DNA of 15,088 nt from Hadesarchaea archaeon (GTDB lineage Archaea > Hadarchaeota > Hadarchaeia > Hadarchaeales > Hadarchaeaceae): positions 1-15,088 of the forward strand of contig JAUXAS010000017.1 of assembly GCA_030619825.1 (NCBI GenBank), given 5' to 3'. Positions 4,868 through 9,081 of the stretch are shown here, in pieces. Position 1 is the stretch's first letter, and the number at the start of each line of letters is the position of its first letter. Below the pieces are notes generated by a model. The model had not been told where the DNA came from, ran no database searches, and saw nothing but the letters and a program-made list of their open reading frames with translations. The translations under genes and the position numbers were made by a program.

Positions 4868-5368
4868 TTAGATAACCCTTGGTATAAATCTCCAGCGAAC
4901 TTTTTTCATGTATTTTTTATATGTATCGCCGTAGGTTTTGATCAAGTGCCCTTCTTCCTCCCTTGCGGCTTGATTTAAGACTATAACATTGAAAATCGAA
5001 AAAAGGAGGATGATTAGTGATTGAAATAAAAAGGAGATCCCAAACATCCCCACAATAATCGACGAATAGTGAGGGTGCCGAATGTATTTATACATCCCCT
5101 CCGTTACCAATTGTCCCCTGTATTTCTTATGCCAGAAAGTAGTCCACCACCACCAAATCACCAAACCAATAAGAAGCGCCGCACCCCCGATTAACCAAAC
5201 TGCCATATCAGGAATTGGAAACAAAAACGGACCGAAAAATAGCCTGAGACTGATGCCAATTACAAAAACTAGCACAGTTGAGATTATGTATAGGAGGTGG
5301 TAAATTTTTTCTTTTTTCGCCTTCTGAGATCTTCTGATTTCAGCTCGACCAGGCGGGAATCTAATCAC
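4868..5368 (-). CDS. Isoprenylcysteine carboxyl methyltransferase (ICMT/PEMT) family membrane methyltransferase
   Basis: LVTEGMYKYIRHPHY and EEGHLIKTYGDTYKKYMKKVRWRFIP motifs; several TM segments; start uncertain (GTG overlapping an upstream TGA). Confidence 0.88.
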   Translation of the reverse strand: MIRFPPGRAEIRRSQKAKKEKIYHLLYIISTVLVFVIGISLRLFFGPFLFPIPDMAVWLIGGAALLIGLVIWWWWTTFWHKKYRGQLVTEGMYKYIRHPHYSSIIVGMFGISFLFQSLIILLFSIFNVIVLNQAAREEEGHLIKTYGDTYKKYMKKVRWRFIPRVI

Positions 5369-5464
5369 CTCGGGATGAACATAGGGACTTTTTTTCTGAT
5401 AACTTTTATATTCTTTACCAAACTCCCTGACCAGCTCCTTATCCTCCTTCCATGCGGTCAGATA
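5365..5464 (-). pseudogene. C-terminal remnant of a second ICMT/PEMT-family gene, frameshifted
   Basis: Minus strand reads YLTAWKEDKELVREFGKEYKSYQKK, then after one extra A in an A7 run (5389-5395) VPMFIPR*, matching the family's EE-x-L-x3-FG-x2-Y-x2-Y-x3-VP-x-FIP terminus. No start codon or N-terminal part. Confidence 0.75.
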
Positions 5465-5661
5465 TTTCCGGAAAAAATCTCGCTGCTTTCAGTTAACGGT
5501 CGCTGTTCTAATAAGCTTCGAAAGATATTGGGCTGACCCGTAAGCTTCAATTTTTGAGGATTTTTCAATTTATCGTAAAAATTCAAAGTCTTTCGTCGAT
5601 TCTTTTAACCAAACATTTAAGTTATATATCAAGGATTCAAAGGAGACAAGGAGAATCTGAA

Positions 5662-5856
5662 ATGAGAGAAAACCTTGTTTGGGTGGCTGTCTCTGTCGTC
5701 GGCATCTGGTTGGCTGTAGCACTCGCAAGCATATTTTCGCCTGACCTCGTCACTAACTCCACCCGTATCCCGGTCGCGGCAATTGTCAGCCCGATCTTTG
5801 GAGCATTTGCCACCTTTGCCACCCTATTCGTGGCGCTATTGAGCAAGGGAAAGTGA
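5662..5856 (+). CDS. Small (64 aa) two-helix membrane protein
   Basis: ATG at 5662 preceded by AAGGAG twice and TATA-like TTTAAGTTATATA (5616-5628); two hydrophobic segments around a FSPDLV loop. Confidence 0.75.
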   Translation: MRENLVWVAVSVVGIWLAVALASIFSPDLVTNSTRIPVAAIVSPIFGAFATFATLFVALLSKGK

Positions 5857-5977
5857 ATCCAAGTAGGCGTCATGCCATCTCCGGGGCAAGACTAGCCTTG
5901 AGCTAACCTCCGGCTTGACCGTTGGTTATAGGTGAACCTCAAAGGTGGGCTGAGTATCATTTAGGGCGATGAAACCG

Positions 5978-6011
5978 ATTTTTGTGCAGAAAATCTATTT
6001 TGTGCAAAGCC
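5978..6011 (+). repeat. Direct repeat, left copy
   Basis: ATTTTTGTGCAGAAAATCTATTTTGTGCAAAGCC versus ATTTTTGTGCAGAAAACCAATTATTGTGCAAAGCC at 6874-6908; first 16 and last 12 nt identical. Confidence 0.9.
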
Positions 6012-6026
6012 GAATCTAATAAAAGA

Positions 6027-6034
6027 TTTAAATA
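6027..6034 (+). promoter_or_regulatory. Archaeal TATA box for a probably leaderless GNAT-YoaP transcript
   Basis: TTTAAATA preceded by purine-rich AATAAAAGA (BRE-like), beginning 31 nt before the ATG at 6058. Confidence 0.65.
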
Positions 6035-6057
6035 TATCTTATTGTAATTATATTTTC

Positions 6058-6822
6058 ATGCCAGACATTATAATCATAAACATTGACAAAAACAATATTT
6101 CTCAATATGAACCTACATGCTTTCTAAATCCAAAAAATGAAGGATATCAAAAAAAGCTTGAGTGGTTAAAAAAGCGTTTTTCTGAAGGTCTGAAAATTAA
6201 ACTATTATATTTGGAAAAAGAAAGAAAATGTATTGGTTTTATTGAATACATACTAGGAGAGTATGCGTGGAGAGCTGTTGATGCAAAAGGCTACATGTTC
6301 ATACACTGTATGTGGATTTTTCCAACCAAGTACAAAAGAAAAGGATATGGTTCACTCCTAGTTAAAGAATGCATTAAAGATGCAAAGAAGGGATGAAAAT
6401 ATGGTGTTGCTGTGGTTACAAGTGAAGGTCCATTCATGGCAGGCAAAGATCTTTTTTTAAAAAATGAATTCAAGTCTGTGGCTAAGGTCAAACCTTCATT
6501 TGAATTGATGATTAAAACCTTAAAGAAAGGACCTTTGCCAAAATTCAAGGATTGGGAAAAGCAACTGAGCAAATATAAAGGACTGAATATTATCTATGCA
6601 AATCAATGCCCGTGGGTTGCCAGATCCATTAAAGATCTAGGCGAAATCGCAAAGAAAAAAGGTTTGAAATTAAAAGTAACTGAATTAAAAAACGCAAAGC
6701 AAGCACAAAACGCTCCCTCAATATACGCTACATTCAACTTAGTATATAACGGAAAACTCCTCGTAGACCATTATATTTCCAACAAAAGATTCCTTAACAT
6801 TATCAATAAGGAAATAAAATAG
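6058..6822 (+). pseudogene. GNAT N-acetyltransferase with C-terminal YoaP-like domain, interrupted by an in-frame TGA at 6394-6396
   Basis: ORFs 6058-6396 and 6412-6822 share a frame: DAKKG*KYGVAVVTSEGPFMAGK. GNAT motifs GFIEY, FIHCMW, KRKGYGSLL; YANQCPW; YoaP-like AQNAPSIYATFNLVYNGKLL. Confidence 0.85.
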
Positions 6823-6836
6823 GAATTTACTTTGAA

Positions 6837-6908
6837 TTTATGTGTAGAATCGAGTTTATGTGCAAGCAACCTAATTTTTGTGCAGAAAACCAATTATTGT
6901 GCAAAGCC
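6837..6908 (+). repeat. Array of four TTWWTGTGYA units including the right copy of the direct repeat
   Basis: TGTGYA cores start at 6841, 6859, 6879 and 6898 (spacing 18, 20, 19); array ends AAAGCC like the left copy. Confidence 0.85.
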
Positions 6909-6931
6909 CGTCGATTCGCAAATTCGCAAGG

Positions 6932-6939
6932 TTTAAATA
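6932..6939 (+). promoter_or_regulatory. TATA box upstream of the candidate ncRNA
   Basis: TTTAAATA; the same 31-nt offset seen at 6027/6058 lands on G6963, inside the 5' strand of the terminal helix. Confidence 0.6.
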
Positions 6940-6959
6940 GGGAAAATTTTTAAAACAGC

Positions 6960-7176
6960 AAAGTGCGGGGAAGAAGCCAGCAGAGAAAGCTGAACCTTCG
7001 CCCAAGGACGCGGGGGAACCGCGGAAAAACCTAGCGCAGCTAGGGAAGGCTGCGGATAAGGTGCGCGGTGGTGCGCGCCGAAGCTGAGTTGCTGGAAAGA
7101 GATCTCGCGGCGAAAAGCGCGGGTAGGAACAACCGATCCGCCGCGGAGTAGGTGCGCGATCGAATCCCCGCACTTT
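6960..7176 (+). ncRNA. Candidate structured non-coding RNA of unknown family (~215 nt)
   Basis: Perfect 12-bp terminal helix AAAGTGCGGGGA/TCCCCGCACTTT; nested helix 6977-6983/7089-7095; several GC hairpins joined by A-rich linkers; upstream TATA box; ends in TTTCT; no credible ORF. Confidence 0.7.
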
Positions 7177-9081
7177 CTACGGCAACTTTCTGAGTTTGGC
7201 CAATTGCTTTGCAACACCTTCGAGGCCGAGCGCTCTGAGGCGCGAACGTGGTATCCAGCCCGTCTTTCGATCCCAGCCTCGAAGTTTGTAGTACTGCTGA
7301 AGCATGTAGTCGAGCTCGACCACGTGCCCCTTGCAGGGACCCGCGGGGGCCGGCTCCTTGATCAAGCGCTCGGGCAAGCGATCGTCCTTGGCGGTGACTC
7401 CCTCTCGAATGTCGAATGCCCGCTCGAGCGTGAAGATTCTCTCACCAATCGTGCGAAGGTCTCGTTCGGTGTAGCGGACACCAGTCGCTGCCGTCAACGC
7501 CGCAGCGAAATCGGCGAAGTAAAACGCCGGGGGCCAGACCGCACCAAACTTGCAGGCTACCAGCGAGTCGACCACCGCGCAAAAGTTCTCCCCATCTCGT
7601 ACCATAAGCGCCTTGTGCTTGGGGTTGAGTCTATCGGCGGCCTCCGGCATCACCTTCTTGCCGAAGCGCTTCTCGATTTCTTCCACGAACCCGACTTCAC
7701 TCAGCACCTCGAATGATGTCAGGTGGTCCGCCCCGCGGTTCGCCGTGGCGTGAGAGAGTCCCATCGATTTCTGCGCCCGCCCGTCCTGCGCCGGCTCGTC
7801 CATCCCCTTCACGACCATCGTGAACCGTTCTGCCTCCTTGCCGAACCCCTTCGCGAACCTAGCGGTCCCCTCGGCGAGCTTTGCGCCGAAGCCCTCGCGC
7901 CTGGCGATTTTCTCGATACACTCGATGATCGCATCGGCATTTCCCCACCTCAGTTCGATGCCGTCGGTCTCGCGCTTAGTCAGCAGGCCGCGCTCGTAGC
8001 ACTCCATCGCGAAGGCAATCACGCCGCCGCACGATATCGTGTCGATGCCGTAGAGGTTACAGAGCCTGTTCGCGTGGAGGAGCTTTTCGAGGTCGGCGTT
8101 CCCGCAGCGCCCGCCCAGACTCGACAGCGTCTCGTATTCGATTTTACCCTCAGAGGGAAGCCCGCCCGGTGTTCGCACGAAGTTCTCGCAGCGCAGCGGG
8201 CAGGAGAAGCACGCGCGGTCCTTGACCTTGAACTCGCGAACTATCCGCTCGCCACCGATCTGCGCCGCGTGCTCGAAGACCCCGCTCTGGAAGTTGCGAG
8301 TGGGAAAGCGCCCAATCTCGCTCATGAGCTCGACCAAGATAGTCGTGCCGTATTTGGTTGTTGATGCCGAGAACTTATGTCGGAGCAGCCCCTCACGTGC
8401 CGCATCCGCGAGGCGTTCGAACCGCTCTATATCCGCGATCTCGAGATCCAGACTGCCCCTAACTGCCACTGCCTTCAGGCGCTTGGAACCCATCACCGCA
8501 CCCAACCCAGTGCGTGCGGCGGCGCGGTAGTTGGTCATTATGCACGAGAAACGGACGAGGTTCTCGCCAGCTTGGCCGATGGAGGCGACCTGAGCATCTC
8601 CTCCGTGCTTTTCCTTCAACGCGGCCTCGGTTTCCAGAGCCGAGCGACCCCAGAGCTGCTTAGCATCCCTGAGCTCGGCCTCGCCATCCTCGACGAAAAG
8701 GTAAGCGGGTTTGGGTGAACGTCCCCGGACGATGATCGCATCGAACCCAGCGTACTTGAGCTCAGCCCCCCAGTGCCCACCCGAGTTGGCCTCGCCGTAG
8801 AGTCCGGTCAGCGGGGACTTCGCGGCAACTTCGTATCGGCCAGTTTGGGGCCAGAACGTGCCCGAAAGGGGGCCCACCGCGAACACGAGCACATTCGCCG
8901 GGCCAAGGGGATTCGTCTTGGGTTTGATGAGGTCGAACAACAGCCTAGCGCAAAAACCATTGCCCCCGATGTAACTCCTCGCGAGCTCCTCCGGCAGCTC
9001 CTGGACAACCGCCTTCCCACGGGTTAAATCAACTTGAAGCAAGCGCCCAGCGTAACCACCCAAGGGGAACTTCCCAACCAA
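7177..9081 (-). CDS. aor: Aldehyde:ferredoxin oxidoreductase family tungstoenzyme
   Basis: KSPLTG, NSGG, AARTGLGAVMGSKRLKAV, CFSCPLRC plus a distal Cys (LVACKF) for the [4Fe-4S] cluster, EYETL, GIDTIS, NRGADH, DDRLPER, YYKLRGWD. GAGGTGG RBS before the TTG. Subfamily and substrate not assignable. Confidence 0.96.
   Translation of the reverse strand: MVGKFPLGGYAGRLLQVDLTRGKAVVQELPEELARSYIGGNGFCARLLFDLIKPKTNPLGPANVLVFAVGPLSGTFWPQTGRYEVAAKSPLTGLYGEANSGGHWGAELKYAGFDAIIVRGRSPKPAYLFVEDGEAELRDAKQLWGRSALETEAALKEKHGGDAQVASIGQAGENLVRFSCIMTNYRAAARTGLGAVMGSKRLKAVAVRGSLDLEIADIERFERLADAAREGLLRHKFSASTTKYGTTILVELMSEIGRFPTRNFQSGVFEHAAQIGGERIVREFKVKDRACFSCPLRCENFVRTPGGLPSEGKIEYETLSSLGGRCGNADLEKLLHANRLCNLYGIDTISCGGVIAFAMECYERGLLTKRETDGIELRWGNADAIIECIEKIARREGFGAKLAEGTARFAKGFGKEAERFTMVVKGMDEPAQDGRAQKSMGLSHATANRGADHLTSFEVLSEVGFVEEIEKRFGKKVMPEAADRLNPKHKALMVRDGENFCAVVDSLVACKFGAVWPPAFYFADFAAALTAATGVRYTERDLRTIGERIFTLERAFDIREGVTAKDDRLPERLIKEPAPAGPCKGHVVELDYMLQQYYKLRGWDRKTGWIPRSRLRALGLEGVAKQLAKLRKLP

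Follow-up and report, generated by a model that had tools for sequence, protein, structure and literature searches.

Within the window, by which we mean the whole stretch of 15,088 nucleotides of a Hadarchaeota genome (G000) that was analysed, positions 6962-7176 of the plus strand are a genuine non-coding RNA gene with a product of ~212 nt. The host belongs to the Hadarchaeota, archaea of the deep subsurface; the glutamine synthetase encoded in the window has its nearest named relatives in Hadarchaeaceae and Hadarchaeales. The gene has a TATA box in front of it and a convergent oxidoreductase gene behind it, and the features of the locus are the following:

6927..6939, plus strand: BRE-like purine run and TATA box TTTAAATA (6932-6939), ~28-30 nt 5' of the RNA start.
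6962..7176, plus strand: RNA gene, belonging to the short subtype (subtype A) of its family; covariance-model score 217 bits, metatranscriptome contig over 6962-7173.
7174..7178, plus strand: T-rich tract resembling a terminator, overlapping the stop codon of aor, the convergent gene.
7177..9081, minus strand: gene of a tungsten-type aldehyde:ferredoxin oxidoreductase (aor; Pfam AFOR_N, AFOR_C), the convergent neighbour outside the RNA.

A preliminary description of this DNA had proposed a novel, independently transcribed, multi-domain non-coding RNA of the plus strand, and this proposal is supported by the lack of an Rfam match, by covariation, by the conserved promoter and T tract and by an RNA contig. 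The TATA box lies at the position given there and is conserved in homologs with unrelated flanks, and the TTTCT noted at the 3' end is present at 7174-7178, overlapping the minus-strand aor stop codon at 7177-7179. In aligned homologs conservation runs from the TATA box to the T tract, and the genes on either side differ. Among 145 genome and metagenome copies, which may overlap, 96 have a TATA-like site at -36 to -11 (mode -28/-29) and 141 have a T-rich end with at least 4 T among the 10 nt around the 3' end. We found a single contig of depth 75.5 in a groundwater metatranscriptome that covers 6962-7173 with one letter different and fits the predicted gene limits, the rest of 6400-7800 including the flanking yoaP-like and aor genes being uncovered in the same data; a DNA run covers all 30 bins of 6400-7800. 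This agreement of ends comes from one contig of one study, and contigs give neither strand nor level. We infer the plus strand from the TATA box, the T tract and the covariation rather than from reads, and the RNA is presumably abundant. The plus strand of 6955-7185 is calculated to fold at -106.7 kcal/mol (z = -4.7) with none of 200 shuffles being equally stable, as compared to z = -3.2 for the minus strand.

Comparison of the homologs supports a predicted overall fold in which P1 closes a three-way junction bearing a four-way-junction domain (P2-P3 with P4, P5-P6 and P7) and a long P8-P9 arm, composed of these elements:

6960-6971/7165-7176, plus strand: P1 terminal helix, closing the three-way junction; covarying core 6963-6971/7165-7173, double-sided changes at 9/9 pairs, 94% of cells paired.
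6977..7095, plus strand: P2 (6977-6983/7089-7095), a purine internal loop and P3 (6988-6991/7082-7085), leading to the four-way junction; P2 core 97% paired, 5/5 pairs covarying.
6995..7014, plus strand: P4 hairpin with a YAAG/YACG-type tetraloop, supported by alignment, covariation and mutual information.
7017..7057, plus strand: P5 (7017-7024/7050-7057), a conserved 5x5 purine internal loop (7025-7029/7045-7049) and the P6 hairpin (7030-7044).
7060..7079, plus strand: P7 hairpin; 90% paired, 7/8 pairs covarying in the model alignment.
7101..7161, plus strand: 3' arm with P8 (7101-7111/7151-7161), GAAAA/GAGUA loop (7112-7116/7146-7150), P9 (7117-7122/7138-7144) and a short tip; AAA and GAGTA of the loop invariant.

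A structure-blind MAFFT alignment of 25 homologs analysed with RNAalifold predicted 43 pairs, of which 33 show double-sided changes. Placing 111 copies on the covariance model, an alignment leaning to that model, resulted in 86.4% of cells being paired as compared to 33.7-42.8% in slid controls, with 0/500 shuffles as high and with double-sided changes at 63 of the 66 modelled pairs. When 96 long and 35 short copies are aligned each on their own, mutual information places the same nested helices on top, the P5-P6 pairs ranking with the strongest signals (P6 being 99% paired), and no pseudoknot is found among the top 60 covarying pairs. Helix sequences change freely and the conserved positions are unpaired purines: AAA and GAGTA of the 3'-arm loop are unchanged in 25/25 homologs, and the GAAAA/GAGUA motif, which we take to be of the loop-E/sarcin-ricin type, is present in 101 of 108 full-length copies.

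This fold retains a large part of the helices put forward earlier. The 12-bp terminal helix 6960-6971/7165-7176 is exact and perfect and is backed by the homologs, and CCAGCAG/TTGCTGG (6977-6983/7089-7095) and AGCT/AGCT (6988-6991/7082-7085) are present as described, with 6977/7095 and 6988/7085 each paired in 87% of cells in the 25 MAFFT-aligned homologs. All four suggested hairpins can be drawn at their coordinates, of which 7030-7044 (99%) and 7060-7079 (87%) are borne out by the homologs but 6995-7007 (74%) and 7009-7023 (69%) are not; the strings of CGCGGCG/CGCCGCG (7106-7112/7139-7145) likewise exist but do not form a conserved helix (69% of cells paired). In the same 25 homologs these three helices give way to 6995-7002/7007-7014 (87%), 7017-7024/7050-7057 (87%) and 7101-7111/7151-7161 (83%). 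The preliminary description missed that the gene is one of five paralogs in G000.

The covariance model R1, built from 25 homologs, matches in 51 of 66 Hadarchaeota genomes with 1-5 copies per genome, i.e. in 39/45 genomes of family f1, 1/1 of f2, 3/3 of f4, 6/6 of f5, 1/9 of f3 and 0/1 of f6. Judged by these predicted members, the RNA spans four of the six Hadarchaeota families in depth. BLAST at E up to 0.1 gave matches in 39 of the 66 genomes, ~10 of them being short chance matches. The five copies in G000, all with TATA box and T tract, are 6962-7176, a tandem pair on contig C64 and single copies on C31 and C28. From >120 pattern matches in metagenomes we fetched 80 loci, 38 of which have a real model match, and at all 38 the neighbours are 46-100% identical to G000 proteins. 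Searches outside the phylum set yielded no convincing match in 89 other genomes picked by archaeal 16S site, in 151 genomes of one Bathyarchaeia class sample, in 160 viral loci or in phage and plasmid records, the sole strong match being the Hadarchaeota genome G060 itself. The RNA is absent from the whole assembly of G043 and was not found with R1 in 7/7 genomes of genus g14; it is dispensable in some lineages. Rfam gave no match at E up to 10 over the element, in the window or at six other family loci, and the literature searched, comprising few subscription papers and no supplements, held no description of the family. By these comparisons the RNA is of a class that stands outside every family tested. 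Some lower-scoring copies are apparently decaying (L127:1550-1763, L119:1898-2111, L159:1545-1757, L160, L161, L162, L122:1515-1679), several of which are the short member of the tandem pair at the GTPase locus.

The copies fall into two subtypes by length, a short one of 205-223 nt and a long one of ~237 nt, in which the 3' arm has a longer tip ending in a conserved AGUGGUCGAG loop. In a tree of 63 copies short and long are separated, with support of 100/100 for 27 short copies and of 79/88 with the long-branch G055 copy included, and the 6962-7176 copy belongs to a short clade that has moeA-side genes on one flank and convergent aor or glnA on the other. We identified a 16-nt operator-like palindrome 57-60 nt upstream of most long copies, present within 4 mismatches at 72 of 104 long as compared to 2 of 40 short promoters and missing upstream of the 6962-7176 copy. 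With a matrix trained on such promoters, the three best sites in G000 are those of its three long copies (C28:3392, C31:9362, C64:45905), and apparently little else in the genome is preceded by one; a fixed operator+TATA pattern matches these three copies only (reversed control 0). The same pattern is found in 1/9 genomes of f4 and f5. The long subtype appears to be under control of one transcription factor. A different 19-nt palindrome lies directly 5' of the TATA box in the short copies L014-L019 and L023 of one subclade of the genus; these copies are situated near glnA.

Several known stable RNAs had to be weighed as possible relatives. That G000 encodes Pop5, Rpp21 and Rpp29 and yields no Rfam RNase P RNA first suggested a diverged RNase P RNA, i.e. 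a derived paralog such as MRP in eukaryotes or another ribozyme sharing RNase P proteins. By eye, the order of elements loosely follows P2, a CR-I-like GGAAG(U)CC, P5, an S-domain-like four-way junction, P15 and GAAU, and in local alignments to RNase P RNAs 12/30 members reach z > 2 against 2-mer shuffles. This alignment signal is lost with controls (RNase P 78.2, reversed 75.7, SRP RNA 82.2), and profile HMMs of the RNA family and RNase P RNA give shuffle-level scores in both directions. Taking the CR-I and CR-V search patterns as RNase P signatures, CR-V occurs in 0/105 copies versus 12/12 RNase P RNAs and strict CR-I in 0/105 copies versus 11/12 RNase P controls searched with a slightly looser pattern. 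A P4-like pseudoknot is not seen in the covariation, and HARP is absent. The 5x5 purine loop (7025-7029/7045-7049) partially resembles the interdigitated CR-II/CR-III T-loops and is shorter than the RNase P strands. Canonical RNase P RNA is above cut-off in 53/66 genomes, many of which, e.g. G024, also have the RNA family. Archaeal RNase P RNA (RF00373), as outlined in PMC4919922, is likewise an independent stable RNA gene with purine-rich junctions and a loosely similar element order, but it has CR-V and P4, whereas our family lacks both, shows no homology over controls and occurs beside the canonical gene; we consider this kinship improbable. The 'highly diverged' branch of the preliminary description, taken here as a diverged RNase P or SRP RNA, is not supported, RNase P homology being at control level and the canonical RNAs being found elsewhere; within G000 the SRP RNA sits on C33, and Rfam recovered no RNase P RNA. 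SRP RNA (RF01857) is not matched at 6962-7176, and ARAGORN predicts 0 tRNA or tmRNA genes in the whole window. An expanded 5S rRNA paralog or another ribosome-bound RNA seems the least credible of all, even though 5S rRNA is called to mind by the three-way junction, by the loop-E-type motif and, in long copies, by similar GGCGG/CCGCC ends. Canonical 5S is above cut-off in 54/66 genomes including G000, HMM scores between 5S and the family equal reversed controls both ways, RF00001 is not matched at 6962-7176, and the AGUA strand is 3' in the family but 5' in Hadarchaeal 5S. 5S rRNA (RF00001), including its expanded forms (PMC7812874, PMC7530397), shares the terminal helix, three-way junction and loop-E-type motif; the opposite strand order, coexistence with canonical 5S and lack of homology over controls set our family apart.

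The genomic context of the copies bears on three further readings. A cis element, either a riboswitch leader or an antisense or terminator element acting on the mRNA of convergent aor or glnA, could draw on the multi-copy occurrence, on a same-strand downstream gene at 50/148 copies and on the overlap of the T tract with the aor stop at 6962-7176. However, the downstream gene is convergent at 91/148 copies, which argues against a leader riboswitch, and missing at 7/148, each copy has a T tract of its own, the RNA contig stops at 7173 and neighbour genes differ at the orthologous site, leaving a cis role with a very small share of our confidence. The Moco/Wco riboswitch candidate is described in PMC2408646 as a 5' leader that precedes the genes under its control and has a GNRA loop and receptor. 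It shares its association with pterin-cofactor and AOR genes with part of our family, but the Hadarchaeota RNA comes from a stand-alone gene with a terminator, which mostly lies convergent with such genes or after them, and Rfam holds no match to it. A Moco/Wco leader position was rejected, with 1/108 copies having aor and 0/108 having moeA downstream on the same strand. We also disfavour, and hold to be quite unlikely, a selfish mobile cassette, be it a MITE or an omega/reRNA-like remnant without host function. Such a cassette would fit the several loci per genome, the foreign genes often inserted beside the 6962-7176 copy and the arrangement in G042 and G043, in which the two genes flanking the long copy in other genomes directly adjoin each other with no RNA between them. 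Flanking direct repeats at 105 copies are not above control, though, and the target-site duplications that the preliminary description had named as the mark of a MITE were not found; moreover, the same sites are retained across genera, the terminal helix varies with compensation, copy number is never above 5, recurrent neighbours include no transposase or nuclease, and the phage and plasmid records gave no match. A service in tungsten-cofactor/AOR metabolism is less remote than these but still doubtful: the RNA could be a free aptamer binding, storing or sensing tungstopterin or a pathway metabolite, or could bind a cofactor-assembly protein. The four AOR-less genomes G043, G045, G056 and G001 all lack the RNA as well (hypergeometric 0.002 before kinship), and the 56 G000 genes present in RNA-positive G062 but not in RNA-negative G043 include moaA, mobB, moeA, moaE, ThiS/MoaD, ThiF/MoeB and AORs of the molybdo/tungstopterin pathway. 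In addition, aor or moeA is at most 1.5 kb away at 21/108 copies, as compared to 1.6-2.6% of genome positions. Against this stand 11 genomes having AOR and lacking the RNA, three RNA-positive, fragmentary genomes lacking moeA, and missing matches to the Rfam Moco/Wco models; the four joint absences amount to about three separate events and may be due to general streamlining, the 21 copies derive from few inherited loci, 64/70 long copies are without such a neighbour, and the genes most often next to the RNA are those for an FAD oxidoreductase, for a TGS GTPase and for a PolB-like product. With the same tentativeness we envisage a new class of trans-acting RNA in archaea that would serve tungstoenzyme metabolism as a free-standing store or sensor by binding the tungsten cofactor or the proteins that assemble it, the long paralogs being regulated and the short ones controlled separately. 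The genomes G043, G045, G056 and G001 lack both AOR and moeA, implying that tungsten-cofactor metabolism was lost in them.

Among known systems, the raiA motif RNA is the best analogue in how it may work, being, according to PMC12968392, likewise ~200 nt, stand-alone and multi-junction with an E-loop, with subtypes differing in peripheral stems and with unknown function. As described there, raiA RNA is bacterial, abundant, single-locus and has two pseudoknots, whereas the Hadarchaeota family is archaeal, has 1-5 copies per genome and shows neither pseudoknot covariation nor an Rfam match. We looked for the PK1/PK2 pseudoknots and an Rfam match and found neither; since raiA needs two pseudoknots, the Hadarchaeota RNA is not a member. 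The OLE, ROOL and GOLLD RNAs are much larger than the ~212-nt Hadarchaeota RNA. As ornate orphan RNAs acting through their fold they are alike, but those treated in PMC12286853 are bacterial or phage RNAs, and the Hadarchaeota RNA has no Rfam match.

The gene, its fold, boundaries and paralogy, its range in the searched genomes and its presence in one RNA library are observed, and on this basis we favour, with moderate confidence, a model according to which the RNA acts in trans through its shape, serving a protein or ligand as scaffold or decoy. Helices vary, the unpaired purine loops are constant and neither a variable guide segment nor a fixed target gene is evident, making action in trans by shape the most likely mode. 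The RNA's own TATA promoter would drive an abundant, stable RNA of ~212 nt, with transcription stopping at the U tract, and this RNA would fold without pseudoknots into the three-way junction bearing the four-way-junction domain and the loop-E-type arm. The conserved non-canonical loops may pack the fold and create a surface to which a protein or small ligand binds, which would make the RNA a scaffold or decoy, as proposed for orphan RNAs such as raiA, and neither a base-pairing guide nor a cis switch. Copies would have spread by duplication of promoter-RNA-terminator cassettes at the DNA level, long copies probably being under one transcription factor and short copies, including 6962-7176, being mostly without its site. 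To our knowledge, few large structured RNA classes are known in archaea besides rRNA, tRNA, RNase P, SRP and guide RNAs. A conserved, expressed and duplicated RNA of 210-240 nt with an apparent regulon of its own across an archaeal order suggests that slow-growing cells of the subsurface have an RNA-based function not recognised so far, and the alignment, boundaries, subtypes and tungsten-pathway correlation make the RNA directly testable.

We considered an orphan protein as RNA partner and rejected it, its occurrence agreeing with that of the RNA in 14/18 genomes only and relatives being found in lineages in which we did not find the RNA. An uncharacterised archaeal protein of 152 aa (G000:C64:517-1137; L708:16013-16471) has 120 cluster relatives, no Pfam family and no clear fold match; in G062 its gene overlaps the 5' end of a helicase-like gene of 949 aa, which by eye is Lhr-like.

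Directly 5' of the RNA promoter, positions 4868-6930 are an inserted low-GC tract (30-48% vs ~58%) holding a PEMT-like membrane gene, a small membrane ORF and GNAT/YoaP genes. This tract is missing in the closest relative L012, and other relatives have different genes directly 3' of the RNA; the RNA gene is possibly a hotspot for insertions. The YoaP-type protein is split over two ORFs, the GNAT half at 6058-6396 and the YoaP half at 6412-6822, and a related run has 1 additional base at 6444. An imperfect repeat containing TGTG(C/T)A occurs four times at the edge of the island (6838-6908), and contigs of run X2 end or switch to other sequence at 6871-6909, suggesting that this repeat is common to other loci.
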